64,000 bases of DNA from Ostreococcus lucimarinus (taxonomy: Eukaryota). This document shows positions 3,180 to 63,988 of this stretch, piece after piece. The stretch's first letter is position 1. The number at the start of each line of letters is the position of its first letter. The notes beneath the pieces are model-generated. The model did not search any database, was not told where the DNA came from, and was given only the letters and a program-made list of their open reading frames with translations. Both the position numbers and the translations under genes were made by a program. The stretch lies in assembly GCA_000092065.1 (NCBI GenBank), contig CP000585.1; one strand, 5' to 3'.

Positions 3180-3300
3180 GAGCGATCGCGACGCGAGACG
3201 CGGGAGACGATGCGGGAGACGTCGCGACGCGAGACGCGGGAGACGACGCGGGCGACGACGCGGGAGACGACGCGACGCGAGACGCGCGACGCGAGGCGCG
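3180..3300. repeat. Microsatellite-like (GAGACGCGG / GACGACGCGG)n tract in the 5' leader of the giant gene
   Basis: Reiterated gagacgcgg gagacgacgcgg gcgacgacgcgg units. Read in frame they give the (RET/TRE)n stretch of the ORF-track protein before the real signal peptide. Confidence 0.7.
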
Positions 3301-3323
3301 AACGTCGAGGAGGGCACGGGACG

Positions 3324-6300: not shown

Positions 6301-9300
6301 CGTCATACGTCGTCACGGATGGCGATGATGCGGGCAAAAGCAGCAACGTCGACGCTAACGAGCACATACGAATCAATCTCGGCAGTTGGGCATCCGTGTC
6401 GACTGTGGAGGTGTGCCATAAACGTCTGGAATCATCGGCGACGTCGATGTTCAGCGCGCACGTCCAAGATTACGACCCGGGTAAAAGTACTTACTTTGGA
6501 CACGATTGTTTGATGGACTCGGTGAGGGACGTGTGCGACGAGACGCTCCGAGGCCAGGGAGGCATAGGGTATCGAGGGTGCCAGACGAAGACGAGGAGCG
6601 GCCGCACGTGTCAGCAGTGGGATTCGCAGTCGCCCCACGGGCACTCGAACCGAAATTGCGCCAAGGGCTCGTGCGGGAACAACTACTGCAGAAATCCTGA
6701 CGGCGCACCCACGATCTGGTGCTACACGACGGACAGATACAAACGCTGGGAGTATTGCGATCCGGATCCGTTACCACACGCGTGTTTGACGTACACGTGT
6801 AAAGGCACCGACGTGAATTCGTTTCACGGACAGTACGTCACCGTGAAAGCCCTGACGAAGGCTCAAGTGACGGAAATCAAGGTCAACGGTCGCAAGACGA
6901 AATGCAAGTACACCGCGGTCACCGACGATGACGGCGAATACGCGATGGATCTCAAAGACACCTCAGGCAAGCTTCCGGTGAAAGCGACGCTGCACATCGG
7001 GGCTTACAAGGAGGAAATTTTCCCTGAAACTACGGAAGTCTTGATTGACTCAAAGAGGAACGCTCAAGGACAGTACCCGGTCCCGAAGAGTCAGGCGCAC
7101 AACGTGTTGCTCATTCTTCGAGAGAATTTCGAAACCTCCGAGCTTGGAATGCTTCGAAACGACAGGCGAACCGAAACCACGTCTTCGCCGCACGCGTCGG
7201 CGAATGGAGTTTACGTGGACGAATTTGCAGCTATGCAAGAGCTCGGATACGACGAGTTTGAAAACGCTGATGAATTTGAAAACGGTTTGCAAAACGACCA
7301 AACAGAGTACGATGTCCATCACGATGGCGGAAATGAGACGGCGGGGAACAACACGACGGCCGCGCTCGGCTGGGGATGCGACGAGACGCTCCGAGGGTGG
7401 AGACACGAAGGGTATCGAGGGTGCCAGACGAGGACGAGGAGCGGTCGCACGTGTCAGCAGTGGGATTCGCAGTCGCCCCACAGGCACTCGAGACGAAACT
7501 GCGCCAAGGGCTCGTGCGGGAACAACTACTGCAGAAATCCTGACGGCGAACCCACGATCTGGTGCTACACGACGGACAGACGCAAACGCTGGGAGTATTG
7601 CAATCCGTTACCTCAACCAGTAAACTGCTACGGTTATTGGGGACAGTGGTCGAATGAGTGTACTCCAACTTGCACGAGCGGCCGACGTTACAGATGGAGG
7701 TACTACAGAATCTCGAGATATCCTAGGCATGGCGGTCTGAGTTGCTCGTACAAAAACGGGCAAAAGGGCTGGGGGTACTGTCCGCCGAAACCGTGTCCAG
7801 TGAATTGTGATGGCAGGTTTGGATCGTGGTCGACGTGTAGTGCGAAGTGTGGTTGGGGCAAGAGACAAAAGACGTTCACAATACACACAGCAGCGGCACA
7901 CGGCGGCCAATCGTGTAGTCACAAGAACGGGTACACGGTAACCGAAAACTGTTATTCCCAACACTGTCCGCCACCCCCGCCGCCACCCCCGCCACCAGGC
8001 GCCGCCGAGGTGGAGGAATTCATCGAGTGGGTGCTTTTGAAGGGCGTCGAATCAAATCGAAAAGGGCATGTCGAAAGGACGCTAACAGGGTCAGGATGGA
8101 CGGCGGGTGCTGTGAGTAAACGCGCCATTCGTGGAGCATCCGATACCGTTCGAGGCGTCTCCGCCGTGTGCAAAGAGTCGACGAGCCAACACAGGATGAT
8201 TGCGATGAATTCACAGTCGACTGCGGATTCCACCTCTTACCAAAGTCTTGATTTCGCAATTTACTGTTTTCCTTGGAACTCGGTGAGTTATGTACGAGTC
8301 TATGAGAGAGGCAAAGCTTTTGGGAATGCTGCAAAGGCGTATAGTGAGAGCGCCGTCGTTCAGATCGCGCTCAACGATGCCGGCAAGGTGGAGTATTTCG
8401 TGGACGGTTTGAAGCTCATGACGAGCGATCAGACGGTGACGTATCCACTTCACGTTGATGTGAGCCTACACGAACAAGGCGCGTCGCTGGAGGATGTGCG
8501 CTGGACTAGGAGAGTCTCGTCACCTCCGCCCTCACCTCCACCTTCGCCGCCTCCGTCCCCTCCGCCTTCGCCGCCTCCGCCCCCTCCGCCTTCCCCGCCT
8601 CCGCCGAATCACGAACTCGAGGACGTTGATTTCGACGGATCGGGTAATGTGATGCGGAGCGAGTTGGTCGACTACATTGAAGCTATCACAATATCGTCCG
8701 AAGGTGGCCACGTCATCATTACGGACGATGTATGGGCGAAGCTCGATCGGGATGAAGACGGCGTGCTCGACGCGACTGAATTTAAGGACGTTGTGAACCG
8801 TATCGAGGCGCAACAGTTGGTCGTGGAGCCAATCATCGTGTTCCCACTTCAAGATGCCCAGTACATGTACGATTTCAGCATGTTTCAGACGTCTGACGAC
8901 GCTGCAAATAGCGGCCCGCGCACGGGCCACGTGCTAGAAGGCGGCGAATCGTGTGAAAATTTGATGATTGTGAGAAGTCGCTCCGCCACTCTGCCGTTCG
9001 GAAACGCTCAATGGACAAAATTTTACGAGACATTGCGAGACGAGCAACACCGTTTCGAGTGCAGAAATCTGAGTAAAATCGAGGTTCCAGCAATCGACGT
9101 CGGCGCGGTGGACAGCACGTACGTCATACCCGTGCTCGCGCACAAGAACGGCACGAATTACCTCATACTCGACACCACGTCCGTCGCGGTGCATACGTCG
9201 AACGAGACGAAAGCGTTGGATATGATGCATCGAATGACTCGAGATAACTTTCGTCTGCGCGTTCAAGCCCAAAAGCGGCTTCCGGATATCTTGCACAGCT

Positions 9301-12300
9301 TTAACAAGCCTCCCGTGCCGCGGGGTGCGTTGCCCGAGGCGCCGAGTGACGAGGAAATCGTCGAACAGGTATTTTCAGATCAAGTGGCGTTGGATAGGGT
9401 CACTTTATCAGTCAAGCATAAACGCGTCGAAGAGAAAGACTTTACGGATGACACGACAGTTATCGTAAACGGTGCCGTACTGTTCCCCAGGGATCTCGTC
9501 GAACAATCCAACGACTGCGGACTCTTCAAGGCGACTATTGAAGTATTCGAACCCGAAGGAGAAGTTGAGGAATACCATACGGATGAGCGAGGCTTCTTCA
9601 AGTTTGCTCTCACTCGTGGGAAAACGTTCAACATACGCCCAAAATACAAGAATCACACGATATGCTACGCTGGCAAAACCATAGAGAACGCTGTCGAAGA
9701 CGTGCACACATGCAAAGGACGCAGCGTGGTCAAGACGCTTCCAAACGTTCAAGATGGCAACTTTGTATTTTTCACCGACGTCACGCGAGGTGTCATCGAC
9801 CTTGGACTATACCACGGAGAGTGTGAACGGCGATACAGCGGTGCTGTGTTTAAGATCACGCCGATCAATGGATGCCACGCTCCAAAGTTTGTGAAGAGCG
9901 AAGAAGTTGAAGGGTGGAATGTCGCAAACACCGGGATGAGTGAGGACGCTAAATTTTGGCCGTTCGCCGCCATGGATTACTCGATCAAGCTCGTGTCGGG
10001 GCCTGACGTGAATGGCATCCAACCGTTGATTGAGAATGAGCCGTGGGCGGACGGATGTGGTACGGAGCCTGGCTCGATGGTGGCTTTCTTTCGATCACGA
10101 AACGCCCATGAACGAATGGCGGCCATGCGCGACGACTACGATTTGGTGACAATTCGGTACAAGTATCACGGCTACATTTGCGTTGAGATCGTGGACATTC
10201 CCAAAATACGAGATCCATTGGAAGTCTGTTACGATCCAAACGAAGCGGACGGTAATCTCACGATTCAACATTTCCTCGGAACTACGACTTCCGAAGATTT
10301 GGGCAGCGTGAGCGGTCAGATTCTTCTCCAAGCGAAAGTGTTCGAATTGCATCTTGATCAAGTCGACGGCGAGCCTGTGCTTTCAAAATGCTTTGAAGCG
10401 TTACCTAACAAGGAAGCTCAGACGGGCAGCACTCTGCTCAGTTTCAGACAGTCGGTCACCGATGAAGACGACAATGAGTGCCATCCAAACCGAGGCGGCG
10501 GACCACTGTGTGATTTTGACACGACGATCGAGCCTGCGTCCGAACTCGTCATTTGGAATACAGACGGTGATACCAGCGTGGAGGTCGTCGCTGGTACGCC
10601 TAATCTCGCCGGTAATCATCGACGAACTGTGGAATTCACCATCAAGCGCTTCGATACGTACAAACTCGTCACCGCGTACGCAAAGCGTGAGCTCATACCT
10701 CTGGGCTCGAAACCTCGAGGAGAAGGGCTCTTCGGACCGGACAGTGACGATGTCTACTGGGCGACTGTGCCTTTGGAGGGTTTGGTCTACACCGTCGTGC
10801 ACGATCCACCCGGTGGTCTCTCGTACGCGGAATTATCGACGGGCTCTCAAATTGGACTTCAGTTTGACTTGGTTGGGAAACGTATGGCGAGCGAGGGCAA
10901 AGGTGGGGCGTCGAAGAAACAACTTCCCGAAATCGATAAGTCCGTCGATGTTGGTTTCAACGCCGGATGGATCGCCGAAGGTTCTTTGTCGACGGACCTG
11001 CATTTGATCTCGTCAAAAGGCGAGTTCAAAACTAAAACGGATGGTCCAACGATGCGTATAACGAGCAAAGAAGACAAGGGGTGGAGTCTCGAAACCACGA
11101 CAGAACGAACGATTCGTTCGAGCAAGGACGCAGGTACTCCTGGGAGAGCAGGCGATGTCATTCTCGGCGGTGGTATCGAGCTCGTGTACAAAATATCGGA
11201 CATCTTGGATGTCGTAAACGATGTTCGAACACTCAAAAAGCCTTGCTTGTACGTGTATGGCGAAATCACGTGGTTACCGCGAAAGCCGACGTCGTACATC
11301 ATGAGCGTCGCGTCGATCGAGACACAAGTCATGCCTAATCTGTACTACTTGCGAACGTTGGTGCAGGAAGGTGGCATCGAAGCAGACGGGTCGGAAATGT
11401 TTTATGACTGCGCTTCCGGCGCGACGAGTAAAGAAATGACCAAGTGCACGAAAGAGGATCAAATCGAAGCTTGGATGCAATATCTCGACAACAAGATTGA
11501 CCTTTGGCGTCGAACACTTGAATGGTCTTCTCCGAAAGTGTTCACCATCGATGAGGGTGGTGTGAAGACGAAGTTTTACGAAGCCATCGAGAGAATCACA
11601 AAACCGGCGTCTGATGGTGGTTTTATGCACACGAACTACAAAGTCCAGGTGGAACAATTCAAGAAGGCGTACGCCAGACCGATTAAGGATATTATCGAAG
11701 AGGTCGGCAGTGCTTGGGATTCAAGTTTCTTCATGATGCCTTTCAACGGTATCGGCCCACCACCGTTTTTTGACGACCCGAGAGTAATTGGTGGCGTGGA
11801 TTGGATGCTTGATTCGCGGTACTGGGAGTATGGTAAAGGCGACACAGCTACGTACAGTAGAATCCGTGGGATTACACCTCGGACGGATTCTGACGCGAGA
11901 ATCGCCGCTTTTGCCTCCTTGGATGCCATTGTCAATACCGGAGGCATCATCGACACGGTGACGAAGAATTTAGACGCGCCGAAGAAACTCGCCGCCCGTC
12001 GCAAGGCGGCTGCCGCCGCTGCTGCTAAGATAAGTAAATCGTATGCTGCTAAGCAAAGGCTATTAAAGGCGGCCTCTAAATGGAAAAGTCTTGCAAAGAA
12101 ACCACCGCCGGGATTCATCACGAGATCCGCCCAAAAGCTCACGGCGGCCAAGAACATGGCCACAAAGGCGGCCAAGACCACAGCCGGACAAGTTGCGGGC
12201 GCCATCTTGCTCAGCGCGGCGGTAGCGGGCGCAGTCGCAGCTGGCCCGGCGATGGATCAGATGGGCTACAAGTATGCCGCCTATCCACGCAAGTATTACG

Positions 12301-14834
12301 AGGATGGCATACCGGCATTTGAAGAAAACTTCTTCGACGATGATTCTGGAGTGCTCACAAAAGAAGACCAAGCCAAAGATGAAGACGGGATGCGAGGAGC
12401 CTATACGTGGGGGATGTTCAGTTCGGCGACGAACGATTTGTTGCGACAATTTAAAAGTTGTGCCGGGAGAGAGTGCAATCGCGATGATATCAGAGTCGAA
12501 ACGCTGTCGATGAGCAACACATCTTTCGGCGAAGACTACTTACTTTGGAACACAAATGACGCACCTGATGTGTCGCGGAGGGTCGTGGCGTCCTTCACGG
12601 GTGGACAAGCTGCTACGGGTATGAATGTGACGACGAACGTGAACGCTACAGACGGTGTACCCGACAAGGGGACGTTATTATTGACGTTCGGCGGCGGTGG
12701 TCACACCGCAGATTATTCATTTTCTTCGAATGAAAAGATTGCAGATCTTCACACCAGCCTCGGTGTTCAACTGTCAGCAAAGCAGTCCAACAAATACAAA
12801 CTCAAACTCGGAGGCTTGCTCGGCTCGACCGTTCAACTTGCCATGGCGCTCGGCGGGGTGGACGATGAGGCTGTCTATACCTTCAAAAAGTCATTCGCTG
12901 AAGATCGAACGTTCGCTTGGAACAGACACGCCTCTCTGAAAACGTTGTACAGTCTAGGTGACGCTCAACTCGGAGATAAGTTTGTCGTGCAGGTTGGAGA
13001 AGACGTGCGCTTTGGTACGCCGGTGTTCATCACAAAGGGTGGCAGAAGCTCGTGTCCCGGTGAACCTTTGACGATGTTTCGACAGGCGGGCTTTTCCTTA
13101 TCCAAAGAAACTTCGTTTAACGAAAATCTGAATCCTGATGAAAGTGCTTTGTTACACTTGAAATTGACCAACGAGTCGCCGTACAAGGAAACGTTTCCGC
13201 TCGGAATGCGCATTGTTGACGGTCTCGTGATGTCGGTCCACAAAGTGATTCAGGACATGTACGAAACGCTGGCCAAGGAAGACGTGACAGGGTTGGACGT
13301 TTTGAAAGCCGTCGATAATTCGATCGCGTCGCTCGCTATCGGGAAAGATGCCGACGTCATCAAAACAATGAAAGAAAACGCGCGAGTGGCCGTGGAAGAA
13401 CACTCGGCGACAGCAGTGGACGTCGCAGCGGTGGTTGTACAAGCCTCGCGGAGAGCTCCACCAACGTTTGAAGACTTGCAGAACATCGAGTTCAGTATGG
13501 GTGGAGAGGAAGTATACTTTGGCGACGTATTACCTCTAAAATTTGTGGACGGTGAAGATTTGAAAGTTCAGAAGAAGGTACTTGAGACGTCTTTCGCGCT
13601 TACCGTGACGGCTGCGAGCCCGTCGAGTCTTCGACTGGAGCACGTCGCCGTCGTCGTCATGAGTTTATGCGAACACGAAATCAGCCTAATGTCAAAGTTC
13701 GGTCGAGAACCGATCAGCACGAACACTCTTCCGCTAGGATTGATGACGTGGAATCAAAAGTGTCCGAAAGTCGCCTTCGACGGTTCCACAGTGGCGGATT
13801 ACTTGTTCTCGAGCGTCTCATCTGCCACGCCCAAGCCACTCAAGTTGACCGTCTTCAATCCGGACGGAGCTTTGTTATGGCCTGGCTCTTCGGATGACGT
13901 CCGAGCTATCAACCCGAATCTTCGATTCGTTCGGTTGCAATATCGTCCCGCGAGCGGCGGCGAATGGATCACGGCAAAGTCTGAAGACAGCGATCCAAAG
14001 TTCAGTTACAAGAAAAACCTGTTATGCGACGGGTCACGTCTCGGTGGTTGCACTTTTGACTGGGACGTCAATAACCAGTACGAAAAGCTTCTCAGTGGCT
14101 TTAAGGATAACATTTACGAGTTGAGATTGAAGAACTTTTGCTTTGGCACGGAAAGTCGTCCGATCAGCGCCTTGGCGGACAGCACCGTTCACGAGTACGT
14201 CTCTGATCAAATCCTCACGCTCAGAGTGGACACCAAGACGCCGATTCCCGGCAGGTCGTATCCTTCGTTCAAGCGATTTTACACTGTCGAGTTCCCCGAA
14301 GCGATCGACTGCTCGGATCAAAAAGTTGCCATCACGAAGAAACGCGCATCCTGCGGAGACGACGGGCAAAGCGTCAATCAAGCCGTGAGCGAAGACGCAA
14401 TCAAGTCAGGCTTTGACTTCCAATGCTCCAATAACGAGGTTGGCTTCAAGTGGATGGTTGGATTTCCTAACACTGAAGTGGGTCAGTACGCCGTCGAAGT
14501 GAGCGGTGTTCGTGACGAAGCCGGGAACGCCGCCGCGCCGTTTACCTTCGTCATGGACGCGAACTGCGCGTCTTCTCAAAAGCTGTCCCTCGCGCGCTTC
14601 GGTCTAGGCGCGAAGAAACGGTCGACTGAGGAAACGGGCGATGTGCCAACGAGTGCATTTGACGTTCCAATCACATCGATGCCCGGCACGTGGGTTCTCG
14701 CGGGGTGCTGCCTCGTCGCCGTCTTCGCCGTCGTCGTCGGCGTTTTCCGTCGCGCGCCGCGCGTCGAGGACAAGGAAAAATCTCCACTCTCCTTTGTCGC
14801 CCGTCGACACCCGCCGTACGGCGCGGTGGTGTAA
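3324..14834 (+). CDS. Giant secreted type-I membrane glycoprotein (3,836 aa, single exon): signal peptide, 3 kringles, 3 TSP1 repeats, LamG/ConA-like segment, poly-Pro and SPPP repeats, EF-hand pair, large uncharacterised region, C-terminal TM helix
   Basis: Signal peptide MRRWRCVDAVVVGAALMLMATVTSALSA from ATG 3324. Kringle consensus: CDETLRGWRDEGYRGCQTRTRNGRTCQQWDSQSPHGHS..NYCRNPDGEPTIWCYTT..WEYC, three times. TSP1: WGSYTSCDALCGSGRKYKTY...GGRSCS, YWGQWSNECTPTCTSGRRYRWRY..., FGSWSTCSAKCGWGKRQKTFT.... EF loops: DFDGSGNVMRSE and DRDEDGVLDATE. Extensin-like: SPPPSPPPSPPPS. C-terminal TM: GTWVLAGCCLVAVFAVVVGVF then RRAPR. Confidence 0.85.
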   Translation: MRRWRCVDAVVVGAALMLMATVTSALSARGAGAHRDAEGEGDVGGVVDDAADASRGANETAGNDATAALGWGCDETLRGWRDEGYRGCQTRTRNGRTCQQWDSQSPHGHSRRNCAKGSCGRGNNYCRNPDGEPTIWCYTTNRNVRWEYCDPLPQPVHCAGRWGSYTSCDALCGSGRKYKTYTVTRNAQHGGRSCSYSNGAKHYADCTTSCAAPTVSIGNPLTRVASNTVDFGLSVKHSVACGGDCLTSAWSRRWMVKIFATVRKDGVSCSSYGAYLPCKRWDDFRDDTTHPSQLLGLTTDTGALDPGTYVIEYVAVLNHYITKQELSRTTGTHTFSIERGCESILPSASSDSGVENSELTKYVLLSADDFVRAPCDKLHDVRESIFRKYDTNPTDGVLDYDELDRAIREQGGDGYILKVWNQIRPLRLSLGHFMEAIVAPHTCASSESVQSVSFKSVVYPSTEAGRETTRKDCAKNAGAMAVDWGYGPKNPPKSGDTVCVFVDGVLFQVNEPKNTAPPHSKDHHSEVAGLWTLTKITDKRPVVGAIGDVQPSLVAQFTFDTEREIGDTVRSDRIFSAAPLASGEKARPYISYSGQHISACSGASGGQCIVARGDGFNYVGDSLGGAVAFSAWVRVAESSATTLIEFSGTDGQLRNSFTLVMDCSSSACTLRASYDSVGTGGNLAKKEISAPMRQWVLVGFTLSHNAGLKLFALPDDSTSTTTASHPSWPKDTLPKLPNIKLFSASRGGGQQHIDDVRLYAGVMDMEMFFIARDCGRGTLCAMRAHATPSHRRVVCVFTQVKGAKTGQPACAGALYYDGTAIDVRASMDLAGVFFEFRDTAWEEKSFEIERRAPAVNGNFDSKFDTVVLIEGGLKGCAAKFSSITYIDRDASYTPYSEWLYRITTKNPDSDDANEITYLLSPQLTFRTPWMSQIEGRVLAGASTEGVRNVRMCAEFDTFVTRTPATEDFQADVEYENLAAFKSVTHSNRAQTSTSYVVTDGDDAGKSSNVDANEHIRINLGSWASVSTVEVCHKRLESSATSMFSAHVQDYDPGKSTYFGHDCLMDSVRDVCDETLRGQGGIGYRGCQTKTRSGRTCQQWDSQSPHGHSNRNCAKGSCGNNYCRNPDGAPTIWCYTTDRYKRWEYCDPDPLPHACLTYTCKGTDVNSFHGQYVTVKALTKAQVTEIKVNGRKTKCKYTAVTDDDGEYAMDLKDTSGKLPVKATLHIGAYKEEIFPETTEVLIDSKRNAQGQYPVPKSQAHNVLLILRENFETSELGMLRNDRRTETTSSPHASANGVYVDEFAAMQELGYDEFENADEFENGLQNDQTEYDVHHDGGNETAGNNTTAALGWGCDETLRGWRHEGYRGCQTRTRSGRTCQQWDSQSPHRHSRRNCAKGSCGNNYCRNPDGEPTIWCYTTDRRKRWEYCNPLPQPVNCYGYWGQWSNECTPTCTSGRRYRWRYYRISRYPRHGGLSCSYKNGQKGWGYCPPKPCPVNCDGRFGSWSTCSAKCGWGKRQKTFTIHTAAAHGGQSCSHKNGYTVTENCYSQHCPPPPPPPPPPGAAEVEEFIEWVLLKGVESNRKGHVERTLTGSGWTAGAVSKRAIRGASDTVRGVSAVCKESTSQHRMIAMNSQSTADSTSYQSLDFAIYCFPWNSVSYVRVYERGKAFGNAAKAYSESAVVQIALNDAGKVEYFVDGLKLMTSDQTVTYPLHVDVSLHEQGASLEDVRWTRRVSSPPPSPPPSPPPSPPPSPPPPPPPSPPPPNHELEDVDFDGSGNVMRSELVDYIEAITISSEGGHVIITDDVWAKLDRDEDGVLDATEFKDVVNRIEAQQLVVEPIIVFPLQDAQYMYDFSMFQTSDDAANSGPRTGHVLEGGESCENLMIVRSRSATLPFGNAQWTKFYETLRDEQHRFECRNLSKIEVPAIDVGAVDSTYVIPVLAHKNGTNYLILDTTSVAVHTSNETKALDMMHRMTRDNFRLRVQAQKRLPDILHSFNKPPVPRGALPEAPSDEEIVEQVFSDQVALDRVTLSVKHKRVEEKDFTDDTTVIVNGAVLFPRDLVEQSNDCGLFKATIEVFEPEGEVEEYHTDERGFFKFALTRGKTFNIRPKYKNHTICYAGKTIENAVEDVHTCKGRSVVKTLPNVQDGNFVFFTDVTRGVIDLGLYHGECERRYSGAVFKITPINGCHAPKFVKSEEVEGWNVANTGMSEDAKFWPFAAMDYSIKLVSGPDVNGIQPLIENEPWADGCGTEPGSMVAFFRSRNAHERMAAMRDDYDLVTIRYKYHGYICVEIVDIPKIRDPLEVCYDPNEADGNLTIQHFLGTTTSEDLGSVSGQILLQAKVFELHLDQVDGEPVLSKCFEALPNKEAQTGSTLLSFRQSVTDEDDNECHPNRGGGPLCDFDTTIEPASELVIWNTDGDTSVEVVAGTPNLAGNHRRTVEFTIKRFDTYKLVTAYAKRELIPLGSKPRGEGLFGPDSDDVYWATVPLEGLVYTVVHDPPGGLSYAELSTGSQIGLQFDLVGKRMASEGKGGASKKQLPEIDKSVDVGFNAGWIAEGSLSTDLHLISSKGEFKTKTDGPTMRITSKEDKGWSLETTTERTIRSSKDAGTPGRAGDVILGGGIELVYKISDILDVVNDVRTLKKPCLYVYGEITWLPRKPTSYIMSVASIETQVMPNLYYLRTLVQEGGIEADGSEMFYDCASGATSKEMTKCTKEDQIEAWMQYLDNKIDLWRRTLEWSSPKVFTIDEGGVKTKFYEAIERITKPASDGGFMHTNYKVQVEQFKKAYARPIKDIIEEVGSAWDSSFFMMPFNGIGPPPFFDDPRVIGGVDWMLDSRYWEYGKGDTATYSRIRGITPRTDSDARIAAFASLDAIVNTGGIIDTVTKNLDAPKKLAARRKAAAAAAAKISKSYAAKQRLLKAASKWKSLAKKPPPGFITRSAQKLTAAKNMATKAAKTTAGQVAGAILLSAAVAGAVAAGPAMDQMGYKYAAYPRKYYEDGIPAFEENFFDDDSGVLTKEDQAKDEDGMRGAYTWGMFSSATNDLLRQFKSCAGRECNRDDIRVETLSMSNTSFGEDYLLWNTNDAPDVSRRVVASFTGGQAATGMNVTTNVNATDGVPDKGTLLLTFGGGGHTADYSFSSNEKIADLHTSLGVQLSAKQSNKYKLKLGGLLGSTVQLAMALGGVDDEAVYTFKKSFAEDRTFAWNRHASLKTLYSLGDAQLGDKFVVQVGEDVRFGTPVFITKGGRSSCPGEPLTMFRQAGFSLSKETSFNENLNPDESALLHLKLTNESPYKETFPLGMRIVDGLVMSVHKVIQDMYETLAKEDVTGLDVLKAVDNSIASLAIGKDADVIKTMKENARVAVEEHSATAVDVAAVVVQASRRAPPTFEDLQNIEFSMGGEEVYFGDVLPLKFVDGEDLKVQKKVLETSFALTVTAASPSSLRLEHVAVVVMSLCEHEISLMSKFGREPISTNTLPLGLMTWNQKCPKVAFDGSTVADYLFSSVSSATPKPLKLTVFNPDGALLWPGSSDDVRAINPNLRFVRLQYRPASGGEWITAKSEDSDPKFSYKKNLLCDGSRLGGCTFDWDVNNQYEKLLSGFKDNIYELRLKNFCFGTESRPISALADSTVHEYVSDQILTLRVDTKTPIPGRSYPSFKRFYTVEFPEAIDCSDQKVAITKKRASCGDDGQSVNQAVSEDAIKSGFDFQCSNNEVGFKWMVGFPNTEVGQYAVEVSGVRDEAGNAAAPFTFVMDANCASSQKLSLARFGLGAKKRSTEETGDVPTSAFDVPITSMPGTWVLAGCCLVAVFAVVVGVFRRAPRVEDKEKSPLSFVARRHPPYGAVV
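3507..3790 (+). repeat. Kringle-encoding DNA repeat, copy 1 (near-identical at nucleotide level to copies 2 and 3)
   Basis: The segment ggccgcgctcggctggggatgcgacgagacgctccgagggtgga...tgcgccaagggctcgtgcggg...aactactgcagaaatcctgacggcgaacccacgatctggtgctacacgacg recurs at 7343-7615, with few substitutions over >240 bp. Confidence 0.9.
6534..6770 (+). repeat. Kringle-encoding DNA repeat, copy 2
   Basis: Same unit: tgcgacgagacgctccgaggccagggaggcatagggtatcgagggtgccagacgaagacgaggagcggccgcacgtgtcagcagtgggattcgcagtcgccccacgggcactcgaaccgaaattgcgccaagggctcgtgcgggaacaactactgcagaaatcctgacggcgcacccacgatctggtgctacacgacggacag. Confidence 0.9.
7343..7615 (+). repeat. Kringle-encoding DNA repeat, copy 3
   Basis: Near-identical to copy 1, including 30 bp of upstream flank (gggaacaacacgacggccgcgctcggctgggga...). 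Confidence 0.9.
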
Positions 14835-57506: not shown

Positions 57507-57571
57507 CTGCGCCGTGGTCTCCGTTTTCGGGAGATAGGCGTCGTATCTATCGCCGTTCGCGCCACCTGGTC

Positions 57572-57572
57572 A

Positions 57573-57601
<29 letters not shown>
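57572..57601. repeat. (GTC)10 microsatellite upstream of the syntaxin gene
   Basis: gtcgtcgtcgtcgtcgtcgtcgtcgtcgtc, ~65 bp upstream of the syntaxin ORF start and ~350 bp upstream of the YeeE-like ATG. Confidence 0.9.
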
Positions 57602-57604
<3 letters not shown>

Positions 57605-57950
57605 TCGTCTCCCTCTCGTCCGCCCCGCGTCCCACCGCCGCGCCTCTCCTCGTTCGACGACGCGCATCGCTCGCGTTTTCGCCCTCGCACGCACTTCTTC
57701 AACAGCGCGTCCGCGCGCGCGAGCAAATCTCCCGCCGACGCCATGCGCGCGCAAACGTCTTCCCGTCGTCGCGATTCCCGTTTTCCCGTCCCGTTTCCCC
57801 GTCGTCGCGCGCCCCCGTCGCCGCCGATCGACGCGCTCGACCGTCCGTCGTCGATCGACGCGTCCTCGATGTCGCGTCGCGCGTCGCGCGTCGCGCGGCG
57901 TCGCGTTTTGCCGTTCGATTCGCAGCGCGTCGTCGTCAGAATCGCGCGGG

Positions 57951-58997
57951 ATGTCGCGCGGCGCGCTCGAGTTCGCGCCCCATCACGCGCTGGGCGGCGG
58001 CGTCCTGCTCGGCCTGGCCGTGATCGGCAAGCTCGCGCTCACCGGGCGCGTGCTCGGCGTGAGCGGCGCGTTCAAGGGGCTCGTGCGGGGCGATCGCGCG
58101 CCGTGGCGCGTCGCCTTCGTCGGTGGTTTGCTCGCCGCGGGGGCGTGCGCGCGCGAACTCGGCGCGCTGGACGCGAGCGTGTCGACGGCGATGGTGAGCG
58201 GCGCGCGCGCGGCGTGCGCGGGGGCGCTGGTCGGCGTCGGCACGGCGATGGGACGGGGGTGCACGAGCGGGCACGGCATCGTCGGCAACTCGCGGCTGAG
58301 CGCGCGGAGCGCGGCGTACACGGTGACGTTCATGCTGGCGGGAGCGGTGACGGCGACGATGTTCGACACGAACGAGGCGCTGGGGGTGGACTCGACGCGA
58401 TACACGCTCGGGCGAGGGGCGCGGAGCGCGGAGGCGGATGAATTCGGGCTGTGGGTAAAAGTCGGCGCGGCGAGCGCGTGCGCGTTCGCCGCGGCGTGGT
58501 TTTACATCGCGCGCGCGATCAAGACGGGGAGTGACGATGGGAAGGAGGGACCGAGCGCGGCGAAGCGACACGCGATCGACGTCGTCGTCGACGGCGCCGC
58601 TGGGTTTACGTTTGGCCTAGGGCTGGCGGTGAGCGGGATGATGTCGCCGGCCAAAGTGTCGGGATTTCTGAGCGTCACGCGAGCGTCTTTCGACCCTTCG
58701 TTGATGTTTGTCATGGGCGGCGCGATGGCGGTGACGATGATCGGCATGCGCGTCATCGGCGCGCACACCGGTCGCCGACCGGCGTGCTCGTACAACTCGT
58801 TCGACTTCTCGTCGAACACCAAAATCGATAAACCTCTGCTGTTGGGCGGCGTGTTATTCGGCGCGGGCTGGGGCTTGGCCGGCATTTGCCCCGGTCCCGC
58901 CATGGTGTCCTCCGTCGCGACGCCGAGCGCGGAAAACTTGATGTGGATCGCCTCCTTCATCGCGGGCATGTGGGCGCACGAACGCGCCGCCGGGTGA
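57951..58997 (+). CDS. YeeE/YedE-family (DUF395) sulfur-compound (thiosulfate-type) transporter-like membrane protein
   Basis: Two-repeat polytopic membrane protein with the family Cys motif: VGVGTAMGRGCTSGHGIVG in repeat 1 and a related GAGWGLAGICPGPAMV in repeat 2. Gly-rich TM helices throughout. Confidence 0.65.
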   Translation: MSRGALEFAPHHALGGGVLLGLAVIGKLALTGRVLGVSGAFKGLVRGDRAPWRVAFVGGLLAAGACARELGALDASVSTAMVSGARAACAGALVGVGTAMGRGCTSGHGIVGNSRLSARSAAYTVTFMLAGAVTATMFDTNEALGVDSTRYTLGRGARSAEADEFGLWVKVGAASACAFAAAWFYIARAIKTGSDDGKEGPSAAKRHAIDVVVDGAAGFTFGLGLAVSGMMSPAKVSGFLSVTRASFDPSLMFVMGGAMAVTMIGMRVIGAHTGRRPACSYNSFDFSSNTKIDKPLLLGGVLFGAGWGLAGICPGPAMVSSVATPSAENLMWIASFIAGMWAHERAAG

Positions 58998-59219
58998 TTC
59001 GTCGCGCGATTCGATCCCGTCGACGCTCGTCGTCGATCATTGTGTCAATAATATAATGTAATACTACCTTGTACCTCTGCTTTCAATATCACGAGCGCTC
59101 GTTCGCGTTGGCGTCCGCGTCCGTCGCCTTCGCGCGCCGCTCGCGCGACGCCGCGTCCGCGTTCTCGGAAAAATCTCGTCCAGACCTGACCCTGGAGCTG
59201 CGGCACAATCGCACGCGTC

Positions 59220-60024
59220 ATGGCCTCCACCTCGTGCGCCTTTTCCGTCACCGCGCGTCCGCGCGCGACGAACAAATCCACCGCTCGCGGTAAACGCGTC
59301 GTTCGCGCCCGCGCGGCGGACGCCGAGGCCGCGCCGGCGGTGGATGTGAGCTCGACCGAGGTGCGATCGCGACGCCTCTTCGCCATCGTTTTCGCGCGCG
59401 CGACGCGAACGACGCGCGCGAGCGCGCGCGAAACGCGGCCGAGACGCGGATGCGATCGCGTCGCGTCGCGGGGGTCGACGACGCGGCGCGCGCGATCGGA
59501 GGCGCGATGAAAGAGACGCGGATATGCGAAAGTTATCCATAAAGACGACGAAGGCGCGCGGCGACGGGAGGACTGACGACGAAGGCGCGCGCGCGCGACG
59601 AACGCAGGTGAAGCAGTTCTACTACTGCGTCGCGAACGCCGATTTTATGCTCAACGATGAGAACAACGAGCACTTCCCGGAGATTTTGCGCGAACGACGA
59701 CGATTCTTCAAGGAAAAGTCCAAGCCGCAAGACTTTTGGATCGTGCCGAACCCGGCGTTTTTGGACGCGATGCCGGACGTGAAGAAGAAGATTCGTCAGC
59801 CGTGCGTCGCGGTCGTCACCACGGACAAAGTTTGGAACGATTTCGTCAAGTTGCGCATGGATAGAGTGTACAAGGGCGGCGTCGAGGGCGCGGTGTGCGA
59901 TATTTTGAAGAGCTCCGCCGCCATCGATCCGAACGCGTTCCCGGCGCCGACGAATTGGACCGCGCCGTACGCCAAGTACGCCGCGGGTTGGTGGAACGCC
60001 TTCGAGCCCAACGGTGGATTTTAA
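59220..60024 (+). CDS. ycf54: Ycf54 (LCAA; Mg-protoporphyrin IX monomethyl ester cyclase accessory factor) with chloroplast transit peptide. Two exons: 59220-59345 + 59608-60024 (an alternative donor is possible).
   Basis: Exon 1 gives a typical cTP: MASTSCAFSVTARPRATNKSTARGKRVVRARAADAEAAPAVD. Exon 2 VKQFYYCVANADFMLNDENNEHFPEILRERRRFFKEKSKPQDFWIVPNPAFL matches cyanobacterial Ycf54 (YYYALASQKFLLEEEPFEEVLKERRRDYGEKNKEIDFWQV..PAFL). Confidence 0.7.
59346..59607 (+). other. Inferred intron of ycf54 (262 bp, donor GTGAGC, acceptor acgCAG, phase 0). Alternative model: donor GTAAAC at 59290 with acceptor gaAG at 59584 (phase 1).
   Basis: Exon 1 frame continues into low-complexity sequence and stops at 59510. 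The Ycf54 homology only begins at 59608. Both models keep the frame. Confidence 0.5.
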
Positions 60025-60205
60025 TATTCTTCGCGGCATCACGACGCGTTTCCCGGCCGCTTAGCGTTTCATAGCCGTAGCGATTCTCGTTTCGATGTCA
60101 TCGACGCCTCACCTCCACTAATCTTTTCACTCATCTTTCAATCGTGCGCACGCGCGCGCGGCGCCACTCCGAGTCGTCGCGCGCGGACGGTCGAACCCGT
60201 GAGCG

Positions 60206-61588
60206 ATGATCGCATCGCGCGCGCGAATCGCCGTCGCCCCTCGACGCGCGCTCGCGTCCTCGCGCGCGCGTTCGCCCGCGCTCGCGTCGACGTCGTCGAT
60301 GAAACTCTCGCGCGCGGCGACGCCGCGACGCGTCGCGGCGACGCCGCGCGCGGCGGTCGACGCCGAGCGCACGGTGCGCGAAATGTACGAGCGAATCAAC
60401 GCTCGAGACGTCGACGGTGCGCTCGCGTGCGTGGATGAGAACGTGGTTTACGAGGATTTCAACTTTCCGGCGCCGTTTCGAGGCAAGGCGGCGGTGAAGA
60501 AGCTGTTCGAGGAGAGCTGCGAGGGCATACCGGACGATTTGACGTTCGTGATCGATGCGTCGACGTGCGGTGGGGACGCGGTGGGGCTGACGTGGCACGT
60601 GGAGCTGATGGGGGAGGCGTTTCCGAACGCGCGCGGGTGCTCGTTTTATCGCGTAGACGAGACGAACGGAAAGTTGGTCTACGCGCGGGATTGCGTGGAG
60701 TCGCCGTTGAAGCCGGGAGAGGCGAGTTTTGGGATCATACGGCTGGTGGCGCCGTTGGTGAAGAAACAAATCGCGGCGAAGAGGGGTGAGGGCGGCGGTG
60801 GAGACGGCGCCGTCGAGACGGCGAAATCCTCGTCTTCGGACGCGGGCGGAAACGCACTGGTGAGCGCGGCGTTTTGGCTCGCGGGCGCGGCGTACTGGTA
60901 CGTCTTGTTATTGTCACCTTCGGATAATCCGATTCCGGGTGACCCGGCGTATGCGATTAAGCCCGAGACGCTGCAAGAAGTCATCGCGGAATCAACAGAC
61001 TTCTTTTTCGTGCTTCCCGTGTTGAATAAGTTCGGGATTGACGCGTTAGGCACGGCGCCGGCGGTGCACCCCGTGTCTCTCGGTGTGTTCAACTTTGCGG
61101 AGGCATTCATTTTCATGCTACTCCCGCTGTACTTTATGGACAAACGGGGAAGAGATTTGCCTACGACGAAAATGTGGTCCATCGGTATGTTTCTTACGAA
61201 CGCCGTGTTGTTACCGTACATGGCGATTCGCGCGGCGACGCCGGTTCGTGATTGGAACCCGGAGTCAAATGCGAACGTGGATGGCTGGCGCGAGACGCGA
61301 TTGGGGGAAAAGGGCGTGATGAGTAAACTCTTTGGCGGTTTCGGACTCGCCGTCGGGCTTCTGTCAGTGTATTGGACTTTGTTTGAAGACCCCTCCGCGG
61401 GTGGGCTCAGCGAGCGGGCGGCGTACTTCAATAACCTGATGCACACCGATCGAGTCAGCGTGGCTTTTGTCGTAGATATCGCGCTTGTGTGCTGCTGGCA
61501 AGCTTACTTTATGAAATCTCTCGACAAGGACTCGGGCGCGCTCGCGTACATTCCGTATTGGGGATTATGCATTTGGCTGTTGATGTAG
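60206..61588 (+). CDS. Plastid-targeted (predicted) protein with SnoaL/NTF2-like domain fused to a polytopic membrane domain
   Basis: Presequence MIASRARIAVAPRRALASSRARSPALASTSS. NTF2/SnoaL-like VREMYERINARDVDGALACVDENVVYEDFNFPAPFRGKAAV. Then at least 5 hydrophobic helices (AFWLAGAAYWYVLLL, FFFVLPVLNKFGI, FIFMLLPLYFM, IGMFLTNAVLLPYMAI, FGLAVGLLSVYWTLF). Confidence 0.55.
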   Translation: MIASRARIAVAPRRALASSRARSPALASTSSMKLSRAATPRRVAATPRAAVDAERTVREMYERINARDVDGALACVDENVVYEDFNFPAPFRGKAAVKKLFEESCEGIPDDLTFVIDASTCGGDAVGLTWHVELMGEAFPNARGCSFYRVDETNGKLVYARDCVESPLKPGEASFGIIRLVAPLVKKQIAAKRGEGGGGDGAVETAKSSSSDAGGNALVSAAFWLAGAAYWYVLLLSPSDNPIPGDPAYAIKPETLQEVIAESTDFFFVLPVLNKFGIDALGTAPAVHPVSLGVFNFAEAFIFMLLPLYFMDKRGRDLPTTKMWSIGMFLTNAVLLPYMAIRAATPVRDWNPESNANVDGWRETRLGEKGVMSKLFGGFGLAVGLLSVYWTLFEDPSAGGLSERAAYFNNLMHTDRVSVAFVVDIALVCCWQAYFMKSLDKDSGALAYIPYWGLCIWLLM

Positions 61589-61639
61589 CTCGTTTAAAAA
61601 GAATTGTTTCGCGCTTTCGCGTATTGAATAACGGTACGA

Positions 61640-63988
61640 TCAGAGCTCGGACTTTTTGCTCTTCTTCTTCTTTCTTCTGCGTTTTTTCGCCTTCTTGGCA
61701 GCCTCTTCTTTGAGCTTCGCCTCCTCCGCTAAGATGGCGTCGAGGCGCGCCTGCGTCTCGAGTTCCTCCTGCGCTCTCTGGGCGAGGTCCTCACGTGACA
61801 GCGCGGCCTCGCCTTCGACTTCCTCGCTCATAATATCGCTCAAATCGAATTCTTCCTCGACGATTTCTTCCTCGACGATTTCCTCCACCGTCTCTCCACC
61901 TTCGACCAGCTTCGGCATCTCTTGAAACCTCCACGTCTTCACCTTGCCGCCGAGAATGTCTGTACAAAAGTCTCGAACTGCAATCTCGTCGAAAGCGCCC
62001 TTGTGCGTGGCGTAACGCGACGTGCGCATCGCCAGTACAGTCACAGTGGGATAATCCACTGGATTGTTCACGTCGAAGACGCTCGAGAATGTGCGCTGCT
62101 TGGTCGGATCGACGATGGCGAAATGATACGGCTTGCCGTACAGCGCCTTGGCGACGGCGTGGATAATCTTCTTGTGCTCCGCGTTGTCGTCTTTGATGAA
62201 CGCCACGACGCACAAACCACCTTTTGCCGCGCATTGTTCGTCGAGCGCCGCCGATGTATCCACGGTCATCGGCATCGAGACCAGTGCGTCCTTGTCGACG
62301 CCGATGACGTGGTCTCGAATCTGCTGCAACCACGAGTTGACGATGGGCGTCATCAACTGTTCGACGGGGTACTTTTGAACCGACATGCGCATGCCACCCT
62401 CTTCGTCGGAGTTTTTATCGGCTTCGCGATATACCACGACGAGCGCGGGTCGAGTCTTGATCTGGAACTGCTCCGTCAACGCCTCGCTGGTGTCCGACGT
62501 AACGCCGTAGATGAAATCTTTCTGCACCGCAGACATCAGGTGAAGCACCTTTCGAGACGTCTCATCGCTCTCATCGGCGAACAGCAATACTTTGGGCGCC
62601 ATGGACGCGACGCCAAACAACGCGCTGTCGATGTTCTTAGCCGTGACAGGAATGGTGGTGTCGACGACGTTGTCGAGAAAGAATCGCCCGACGGCGTCGG
62701 GAGCAAAGCCTTCAATAGTCGCGACCGATGGCTTGAAAACGATCGGATCGCGATCGTCGTCTTCGTCATCGGTCGATGGGAACATGACCAATTCCGCACA
62801 CTTATCTTTGGACTTGAACAATCCGAATTTCGTCACCAAAGCCCGTGCGGCTTCGTCGTCGTCTCGCGCGATGACTTCTCGGAAATCAAAGACGCCTTCG
62901 TACTCGTGGAAACTTTTGGGTAAGGCGTCGACGAGTTCGACGCACTCGTCGCTAGCCTTCGTGAACGCGACCACCTGAATACGCTTGTGATTCGACAGCA
63001 CGTCGGTTTCGAAATCTTTCGCGAGCGCAGGCTTGAAAAGAGACGTCGAAAAGTCTTGTTTTTGCCCATCCTTTTTCGGCGTCGCGTCGATGGTTTCCAT
63101 CTTCAACTCCACCTCCGGTCCGGCGTGCTCGGTCAAGAACTCCAAAACCACTTCGCGCTTCATCGACGCGCTCTCAAAGGGAATCGGCGTCGCAGAAACG
63201 TCGGTCGGGTACACGACGAGTCGCGCGTCCTCGGGAGCGCCGGGCAACTGCGGCGCGACGTCGCCCTCGTACACCGCCTCGATGAAGCGCACGCGACCCT
63301 CGAGAGCGTGAGAGATGGATTTCAACAACGCCGACGTCGACGGTTTGTTCGTCAATAAAACAGCGATCGGCAGCGTGACGTCGCCACCGAAAGCCGCGCG
63401 AATCGACGCCGCGCTCGCGAAGCGCTCGGCGTCCTCCGTCGCGCTCGCGCGATTCACCAAGTGCGTCGGCAAAGCGTTTTCCGCGAACGCCGCGAACGCC
63501 TTCGCCCGCACGTCCCCAACCTGACCGTCTTCTCGCGAAATCGGATAATTCACCGGCATTTTCGCCGACCGCCGCGCGTCGTACGGATTCAACGTCGCGA
63601 ACGTCGGGTACGCGCTCACCGCGGGAATCGTCGTCAACCGCGTCAGCCTCCCCAACCGCTCGAGATCGACCCCCTCCCTCGTCACGTCCAGGCTCCCGAA
63701 ATTCACCCTCAATTTCTCCCCCGCCCCCCTCGCCGCCTTCTCGAACTCGCGCGACACCTCCCCGCAGATCGCGCACTTCTCCGAGCTCCCCGTGAACGAC
63801 ACCACCCACGGCTCGCGCGAGCGCGTCGCCAGCGTCTCGAACGCGTCCACGTCCAGCGTCACCACCGCGCCCTCGCCGCGCGCGCCGCGCGCCCTCGCCA
63901 TCGCGAGCATCGTCACCACCGCCCCGAGCGCGCCTCGCGCGCCGCGCGCGCGTCCTCGCGTCGTTCGCTCGCGAGAACGCGCGAACAT
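61640..63988 (-). CDS. Large thioredoxin-like-fold protein (PDI-related?) with CxxC site, acidic region and Lys-rich C-terminus ending KSEL
   Basis: WVVSFTGSSEKCAICGEVSREFEKAA resembles a thioredoxin active-site region (W..F....C..C). Protein-like composition over 782 aa. The tail ...KKAKKRRRKKKKSKKSEL is a possible ER-retrieval variant. The ORF reaches within 12 bp of the window end. Confidence 0.5.
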   Translation of the reverse strand: MFARSRERTTRGRARGARGALGAVVTMLAMARARGARGEGAVVTLDVDAFETLATRSREPWVVSFTGSSEKCAICGEVSREFEKAARGAGEKLRVNFGSLDVTREGVDLERLGRLTRLTTIPAVSAYPTFATLNPYDARRSAKMPVNYPISREDGQVGDVRAKAFAAFAENALPTHLVNRASATEDAERFASAASIRAAFGGDVTLPIAVLLTNKPSTSALLKSISHALEGRVRFIEAVYEGDVAPQLPGAPEDARLVVYPTDVSATPIPFESASMKREVVLEFLTEHAGPEVELKMETIDATPKKDGQKQDFSTSLFKPALAKDFETDVLSNHKRIQVVAFTKASDECVELVDALPKSFHEYEGVFDFREVIARDDDEAARALVTKFGLFKSKDKCAELVMFPSTDDEDDDRDPIVFKPSVATIEGFAPDAVGRFFLDNVVDTTIPVTAKNIDSALFGVASMAPKVLLFADESDETSRKVLHLMSAVQKDFIYGVTSDTSEALTEQFQIKTRPALVVVYREADKNSDEEGGMRMSVQKYPVEQLMTPIVNSWLQQIRDHVIGVDKDALVSMPMTVDTSAALDEQCAAKGGLCVVAFIKDDNAEHKKIIHAVAKALYGKPYHFAIVDPTKQRTFSSVFDVNNPVDYPTVTVLAMRTSRYATHKGAFDEIAVRDFCTDILGGKVKTWRFQEMPKLVEGGETVEEIVEEEIVEEEFDLSDIMSEEVEGEAALSREDLAQRAQEELETQARLDAILAEEAKLKEEAAKKAKKRRRKKKKSKKSEL

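Follow-up and report, generated by a model that had tools for sequence, protein, structure and literature searches.

A single-chain YedE1/YedE2-type membrane protein of the YeeE fold in Ostreococcus lucimarinus and its distribution among eukaryotes

The genomic stretch examined here comprises 64,000 nucleotides of Ostreococcus lucimarinus (assembly GCA_000092065.1, contig CP000585.1) and is referred to in full as the window. At positions 57951-58997 it contains a nuclear gene without introns, native to an Ostreococcus-type green picoalga, which encodes a nine-transmembrane (TM) membrane protein of the YeeE fold. Judged by its sequence the protein is a YedE1-type half and a YedE2-type half joined in a single chain by a linker that carries a new central TM helix. 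The reading that we favor, with a probability of roughly 0.6, is that of a native fused YedE1/YedE2-type protein that would pass reduced inorganic sulfur by way of its cysteines. A first-pass annotation had described the product as a TsuA-type sulfur transporter from an essentially prokaryotic family, possibly acquired by the alga from a bacterium. The open reading frame (ORF) and the loop GRGCTSGHG were located exactly in that annotation. The family, the distribution and the origin are revised below.

The one significant Pfam match of the protein is to PF20398 (DUF6691), with E = 1.8e-30 over residues 213-343. PF04143 (Sulf_transp), the profile proposed in the first-pass annotation as a check, scores 21.3 bits, which is under the gathering score of 27. 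It aligns with residues 17-133 only, at positions 183-309 in the C-terminal half of the profile, whereas E. coli TsuA itself reaches 397.9 bits over positions 1-310. By the refuting condition named in the first-pass annotation, the lack of an HMM match, the TsuA assignment is thus lost on a technicality, although the sister family PF20398 matches. No match was found in a scan of NCBIfam. Close relatives are the paired genes of the A. tumefaciens pAt3 operon, which has the order blh-bigR-yeeE/yedE-yeeE/yedE-tauE. Identity is 42% between residues 13-140 and the first yeeE/yedE gene (E 1e-19) and 45% between residues 216-345 and the second (E 1e-32).

The bacterial YedE1/YedE2 proteins, also called PmpA/PmpB, are represented by the pairs of C. 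pinatubonensis, S. meliloti and Serratia ATCC 39006 and by the blh-bigR operon of A. tumefaciens and Xylella. Their modules stand in the same order as in the alga. In both systems a module with the GCTSGHG cysteine is combined with a DUF6691 module with the CPGP cysteine, and each module has four TM helices and one invariant cysteine (in GCTSGHG and GWGxxGxCPGP, respectively). The bacterial proteins are two separate chains of about 140 aa (130-145 aa), encoded by adjacent genes and assembled as a heterodimer, whereas the algal protein is one 348-aa ORF with a linker of about 75 aa and a ninth TM helix.

The TsuA/YeeE proteins (E. coli b2013; S. thermophila structures 6LEO, 6LEP, 8J4C and 8K1R) have the same YeeE fold as the algal protein, but the overall identity is only about 15%. 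The algal N-terminal half matches the C-terminal half of E. coli TsuA (BLAST E = 6e-9 over 141 residues), and hhalign of the family profile places residues 10-137 onto TsuA 197-334. For a bacterial DUF6691 protein, the match to the Sulf_transp profile falls on positions 18-101, in the N-terminal part. The order of the halves is therefore reversed relative to TsuA, in which the N half with Cys22 and Cys91 is followed by helix H7 and then by the C half with Cys293. Similarity to the solved YeeE of S. thermophila (StYeeE) is marginal (E = 0.007), with the N half paired with YeeE 212-322 and the C half weakly with 75-118. The third conserved cysteine of TsuA (StYeeE C22, EcTsuA C25) has no counterpart, and GLAVSGMM, the first buried loop of the DUF6691 half, is free of cysteine. 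No TsuB partner was identified among the neighbors, which are a SNARE gene and Ycf54. The sub-threshold PF04143 score, the swapped halves and the closer YedE1/YedE2 pairs (42-45%) speak against the TsuA-type label. Two further members of the YeeE/YedE superfamily, SoxT1A and SoxT1B of Hyphomicrobium denitrificans, move or sense reduced sulfur (PMC11582611). They are set apart from the algal protein by their description as full-length, TsuA-like proteins with three conserved cysteines that are encoded in sox/shdr clusters.

The assignment of the halves agrees with an independent result. Li et al. showed PmpA to be the counterpart of the C half of YeeE (Cys293) and PmpB that of the N half (Cys91), with the central H7 left uncovered (PMC11582611). 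Because the half order is opposite, the eukaryotic fusion must, on the alignments, be independent of the TsuA fusion. The same transporter architecture would thus have been assembled twice with its halves fused in opposite orders, which makes it a clean example of its kind.

An AlphaFold model of the algal protein contains 13 helices, arranged as four elements of TM helix, loop, short helix and TM helix plus a central TM helix. This is the 13-helix hourglass fold of the YeeE/YedE structural superfamily (PMC7449682), and the cysteines lie in the buried loop of the second element of each half, as do C91 and C293 of StYeeE. The description of the product as a two-repeat membrane protein is borne out by the four-element model. 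By sequence the halves are barely similar, with a BLAST E of 5.6 between them and a profile-profile E of 0.024 by hhalign, which nevertheless puts both Cys loops in register.

The Cys loop noted as conserved in the first-pass annotation, and a second one in the other half, are both invariant at their cysteines in an alignment of 47 homologues. In loop 1, which aligns with the GGCNIGH motif of StYeeE, the residues G103, C104, T105, S106, G107, H108 and G109 are invariant. The counterpart of its cysteine is essential in both StYeeE and YedE1 (PMC7449682, PMC10812762). In loop 2 the invariant residues are G306, W307, G308, G311, C313, P314, G315 and P316. The alignment of this loop to StYeeE residues 75-118 is weak, and the cysteine of PmpB has been assigned to Cys91 (PMC11582611). 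C104 and C313 are the only invariant cysteines in the alignment, and both were again invariant in 19 divergent eukaryotic members.

The linker is the part of the protein that the bacterial pair lacks, and it recurs throughout the eukaryote-wide fused family. Among 307 fused homologues, the linker contains a hydrophobic run of 19 aa or more in 223, and the two Cys motifs are 167 to 376 aa apart (median 200) compared to about 135 aa in a concatenated bacterial pair. The central TM helix would flip the topology of the second module so that it is inserted in the opposite orientation, as H7 does in YeeE (PMC7449682).

Bacterial and archaeal relatives were sought in one genome per species (GTDB), and the best 80 loci were fetched. 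At least 540 relatives were found, mainly in Alpha-, Beta- and Gammaproteobacteria. Both halves could be placed at 77 loci, in every case as a pair of neighboring ORFs of about 140 aa and never as a fusion, with the GCTSGHG gene followed by the DUF6691 gene as in the alga. All 295 matching plasmid records are likewise in two pieces, which are annotated as 'YeeE/YedE family protein' and 'DUF6691 family protein'. A homologue of Blh/MBL-type persulfide dioxygenase lies within 6 kb in 46 of the 80 loci, an ArsR/BigR-type repressor is present in 35 and TauE in 10; either Blh/MBL or ArsR/BigR is nearby in 54. These neighbors connect the split form with the metabolism of persulfide and sulfide.

Fused members occur widely among eukaryotes, heterotrophs as well as algae, and the family is not essentially prokaryotic. 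An exhaustive HMMER search over 1.84 billion cluster representatives returned 1544 proteins at E < 1e-30. The top 150 matches all score above 243 bits, a mark passed by more than 150 clusters at 50% identity; most of these top matches cover nearly the whole profile and some are fragments. The halves are fused in all of the best 120 matches having both motifs, with the Cys motifs separated by 178-242 residues (against about 135 in the bacterial concatenate). Fused members occur in Ostreococcus tauri, Micromonas commoda, Mamiellaceae RCC2288, Volvox, Gonium, Pleodorina, Polytomella, Chlamydomonas eustigma, Picochlorum, Pyramimonas, Tetraselmis and Euglena. A second search with divergent seeds added Myrmecia, the diatoms Chaetoceros, Fragilaria and Cyclotella, the fungi Umbelopsis and Neocallimastix, Tetrahymena thermophila and Diplonema papillatum. 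Two family members lie on contigs of 13-48 kb with eukaryote-like neighbor genes. A bacterial sulfur importer of two subunits thus has single-chain counterparts in several eukaryotic supergroups. Individual members are already annotated, for instance as 'Sulphur transport domain-containing protein' in O. tauri and as 'uncharacterized membrane protein YedE/YeeE' by JGI. The eukaryote-wide single-chain YedE1-TM-YedE2 architecture appears to be undescribed in the searchable literature.

A few members depart from the common plan. P0435 (266 aa, on an ENA contig of 2.8 kb) has a distance of only 140 residues between its Cys motifs, as if the halves were fused without a linker. Two overlong chlorophycean members, P0237 (938 aa, Chlamydomonas sp. 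UWO241) and P0222 (631 aa, Edaphochlamys), may represent extra domains, tandem copies or merged gene models.

The relationship of the eukaryotic proteins to the bacterial pairs was approached with a neighbor-joining tree of the concatenated halves (100 bootstraps). Ostreococcus, Micromonas and other Mamiellales form a clade within a green-algal group that also holds Euglena, and the Mamiellophyceae clade mirrors the species relationships. A second eukaryotic group (diatoms, fungi, a ciliate and a diplonemid) stands beside the green group, and proteobacterial pairs are placed apart. The gene family is old and vertically inherited in Mamiellophyceae. A proteobacterial yedE1-yedE2 pair is most likely the ultimate, ancient source of the whole eukaryotic family. 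As to the bacterial-to-alga transfer suggested in the first-pass annotation, nothing points to a recent or alga-specific event: the clade tracks the species and gene order is conserved. For the window the result is mainly a correction: this is a normal, conserved gene of Mamiellophyceae with no evidence of gene transfer into the alga. A plastid (cyanobacterial) origin was considered and discarded. The best 80 GTDB loci include no cyanobacterium, the gene is also present in heterotrophic eukaryotes, and most members, including those of diatoms, have no N-terminal extension.

Tentatively, the whole family may go back to one event. In that scenario an ancient yedE1-yedE2 fusion, possibly linked to the mitochondrial ancestor, founded all of the eukaryotic fused proteins, the nine-TM architecture was re-invented with a new central helix, and the product serves eukaryotes as a carrier of sulfane sulfur or thiosulfate. 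The argument for a single origin comes mainly from the fusion and linker held in common, which are a stronger indication of common descent than the neighbor-joining tree.

From homology we infer the substrate, the direction of transport, the membrane and the cysteine relay as follows. In YeeE, four buried loops form a central constriction about 15 Å thin, lined by Cys293, Cys91 and Cys22 at intervals of about 7 Å, of which Cys91 and Cys293 are essential (PMC7449682). If the algal protein follows its homologues, its four re-entrant loops would meet in the middle of the membrane and leave a narrow, hourglass-shaped pathway. The two invariant cysteines would relay small reduced inorganic sulfur species across the constriction. 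The single chain would itself supply the topology-reversing helix that a YeeE-like antiparallel arrangement requires. Sulfane (zero-valent) sulfur or polysulfide would be the first candidate substrates, as the nearest homology suggests, with thiosulfate as the main alternative. YedE1E2 of C. pinatubonensis and S. meliloti conferred faster uptake of polysulfide and elemental sulfur, for which both subunits and both cysteines were required (PMC10812762). YedE1E2 stimulated the import of zero-valent sulfur but not its export, and a TsuA-type protein was inactive in the same assay, the one published functional comparison of the two types (PMC10812762). Eukaryotic transport of thiosulfate, polysulfide and persulfide sulfur across the membranes of cells and organelles is poorly known, and thiosulfate uptake in fission yeast has been called obscure (PMC8310684). 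The fused family offers a concrete candidate for a eukaryotic carrier of sulfane sulfur or thiosulfate.

Several points weigh against a fused YedE1/YedE2-type protein that moves reduced sulfur through its cysteines. The assay of YedE1E2 was carried out by heterologous over-expression in E. coli, function has been assayed for the bacterial pair only, and the physiological substrate is not firmly settled. For proteins of the PmpAB type, transport of sulfite or other sulfur ions has been proposed as well. A close approach of C104 and C313 is taken over from YeeE and would apply to the algal protein by analogy. No sulfur-related gene was found among the scanned ORFs of the window, and there is no operon-like link; the blh/pdo, BigR/ArsR and TauE neighbors of the bacterial pairs are missing among these ORFs. 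Eukaryotic genes are not organized in operons, and hence the adjacency of a partner or of blh-bigR is not expected in the alga. The membrane of residence is not indicated by a targeting peptide, as none is present in the algal protein. The proteins of Ostreococcus, Micromonas, diatoms, fungi and the ciliate begin right at the first TM helix; N-terminal extensions of about 85-93 aa are found in some proteins of Volvocales and Picochlorum. Literature searches returned no relevant publication, and thus no functional data, on the eukaryotic members. In the neighbor-joining tree the split between eukaryotes and bacteria has a bootstrap value of 15%, and an Oligoflexia pair is placed with the eukaryotic branches. 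Neither a bacterial sister group nor robust monophyly of the eukaryotes was recovered in this tree, and the donor clade that the first-pass annotation had hoped to identify by phylogeny goes unnamed.

The fold shared with the thiosulfate transporter YeeE, the algal counterparts of the essential StYeeE residues C91 and C293, and the alignment of the algal N half with the TsuA C half could also be read as those of a TsuA/YeeE-type thiosulfate importer feeding cysteine synthesis. We consider this rather unlikely. Identity to TsuA is about 30% and confined to one half, compared to 42-45% over both halves of YedE1/YedE2. The profile scores fall short (PF04143 below the cut-off, NCBIfam without a match), the halves are swapped and the third conserved cysteine is absent. 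There is no adjacent TsuB/TusA-like gene, though adjacency would not be expected in a eukaryote, and the two types behaved differently in the sole head-to-head assay (PMC10812762). An exporter or bidirectional channel for the sulfite or thiosulfate that arises from persulfide and sulfide detoxification is less probable still. Such a role is suggested by the bacterial blh-bigR operons, which hold the sulfite exporter TauE together with a persulfide dioxygenase (with sulfite and thiosulfate as products), and Tanaka et al. did not exclude a channel mechanism for YeeE (PMC7449682). However, it was import of zero-valent sulfur and not export that YedE1E2 boosted (PMC10812762), and the separate TauE gene of these operons already serves sulfite export.

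E. coli YedE (b1929), which carries the annotation of a putative selenium transporter, is a further member of the superfamily and has the same half order as the algal protein, and its C half matches the N half of TsuA (E 3e-25). Mamiellophyceae have many selenoproteins, which lends relevance to a transporter of selenium (selenite or selenide) like the selenium-linked YedE proteins. The distribution would also suit it, in that no land plant is among the named matches, although land plants were not searched systematically. We regard selenium transport as very improbable, because the similarity to E. coli YedE is at the level of motifs only (hhalign probability 7.6% over 29 columns; BLAST E 0.004 or worse) and because fungi such as Umbelopsis and Neocallimastix also carry the family. 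The eukaryotic fusion does not derive from E. coli YedE, a protein of 401 aa that pairs with YedF. The halves of YedE are themselves permuted with respect to TsuA, as is also seen in the match of the TsuA C half to the YedE N half (E 4e-9), so that the superfamily has undergone more than one change of half order.

A recent horizontal transfer from a bacterium to the alga, or a bacterial contaminant in the assembly, is hardly credible and is rejected. The nearest non-eukaryotic relatives are proteobacterial, and the gene is a local maximum of G+C. Its G+C content of 0.70 and its G+C content at third codon positions (GC3) of 0.88 are the highest among 13 local genes (GC3 range of local genes 0.64-0.80). 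A foreign base composition was nevertheless discarded as a sign of transfer: the flanking intergenic DNA is just as G+C-rich (0.67-0.69, in a window that spans 0.51-0.72), and the high GC3 is therefore no evidence of foreign origin. The closest matches are all eukaryotic fused proteins, with 74% identity in O. tauri and 42-52% in Micromonas and chlorophytes, against 40-48% per half in bacteria, where the linker is always lacking. Contamination and recent transfer are rejected because the flanking genes are eukaryotic, because the block of genes is conserved across Mamiellales, and because orthologues in related genomes need an intron; the agreement of the Mamiellophyceae clade with the species relationships points the same way.

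The first-pass annotation had placed the gene in a eukaryotic context, which is borne out, and had advised a check of flanking genes and introns against contamination. The neighbors in the window encode an alpha/beta hydrolase, a SNARE protein, Ycf54, a SnoaL_2 membrane protein and an OST3/thioredoxin protein. Farther off are genes for a giant Kringle protein, an SNF2/F-box protein, Hsp70, DnaJ, an EIPR1-like WD40 protein, trehalase and others. The block consisting of the YeeE-like gene, Ycf54, SnoaL_2 and OST3/thioredoxin, with the SNARE gene nearby, is kept in Micromonas-like contigs, where the protein is about 47% identical. Ycf54 is on the plus strand here and inverted (minus strand) in the Micromonas-like contigs. 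The Micromonas-like orthologue is divided into two coding segments, and in three of the four inspected contigs the reading frame differs between them. A GT-AG intron of about 160-270 nt is needed for the full product of 341-342 aa. Two 256-aa proteins on megabase contigs, P0092 and P0196, were candidates for cyanobacterial or other bacterial fused relatives. They were dismissed, as their contigs are Mamiellales nuclear DNA with the same neighbors; both are exon-2-only calls of intron-bearing orthologues by automatic gene callers.

The ORF in the window runs uninterrupted from ATG to stop. The region has many spurious antisense ORFs that stem from its high G+C content. This ORF is real and not a chance product of that composition, because close homologues exist: a protein search returned matches with E = 8e-216 (99% identity), 4e-187 (88%) and 1.6e-150 (Ostreococcus tauri, 74%). 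Public assemblies contain the identical protein in 589 indexed blocks, and the same neighbor genes are present in all four inspected contigs that encode it, which come from marine metagenomes including Tara Oceans. The alga is therefore an abundant marine Ostreococcus distinct from O. tauri. The coordinates of the gene, its parts and the loci compared with it are given in Table 1.

Table 1. Positions of the fused gene, its modules and the comparison loci (window numbering except where a contig handle, L001-L008, is given)
Feature	Position	Strand	Remarks
Fused YedE1-linker-YedE2 membrane protein, complete single-exon coding sequence	57951..58997	+	348 aa plus stop
N half, YedE1/PmpA-type four-TM module, aa 1-140	57951..58370	+	Equivalent to TsuA/YeeE C-terminal half
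Cys loop 1, GRGCTSGHG (Cys104)	58251..58277	+	From translation; counterpart of StYeeE Cys293 and CpYedE1 Cys104
Linker, aa 141-215, about 75 aa	58371..58595	+	Matched by neither bacterial gene
Central TM helix, aa 162-191, ADEFGLWVKVGAASACAFAAAWFYIARAIK	58434..58523	+	AlphaFold (AF2) helix 162-191; from translation
C half, YedE2/PmpB-type four-TM module (Pfam DUF6691), aa 216-348	58596..58994	+	Equivalent to TsuA/YeeE N-terminal half
Cys loop 2, GWGLAGICPGP (Cys313)	58866..58898	+	From translation; counterpart of StYeeE Cys91 and CpYedE2 Cys101
Intergenic region between the gene and the divergent SNARE gene, presumed promoter	57507..57950	.	444 bp; promoter function inferred only
Conserved block, Ostreococcus versus Micromonas-like Mamiellales	window 57951-63988; L003-L008 about 5500-12771
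Intron of orthologues, after roughly codon 70	L006 about 5783-5947; L003 about 5707-5979		GT-AG
E. coli K-12 TsuA/YedE comparison loci	L001 3468-4526; L002 2278-3483		BLAST of half-proteins

Some minor features of the window were recorded in addition. The intergenic region upstream of the gene contains a (GTC)12 microsatellite at 57573-57609, found by tandem-repeat analysis, and further short G+C-rich tandem repeats lie close to it at 57776-57906. The SnoaL_2 membrane protein, which adjoins the YeeE-like gene across Mamiellales, is a 460-aa protein (60206-61588, plus strand) with an N-terminal SnoaL_2/NTF2-like domain and a hydrophobic C-terminal half that apparently has multiple TM helices. 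At the other end of the window, a single ORF of 3874 aa (3210-14834, plus strand) encodes three Kringle domains and a spondin-like TSP1 domain. Its region is the G+C minimum of the window (0.52-0.57 compared to 0.60-0.72 elsewhere), and a large Kringle protein of extracellular type is unusual for a picoalga.

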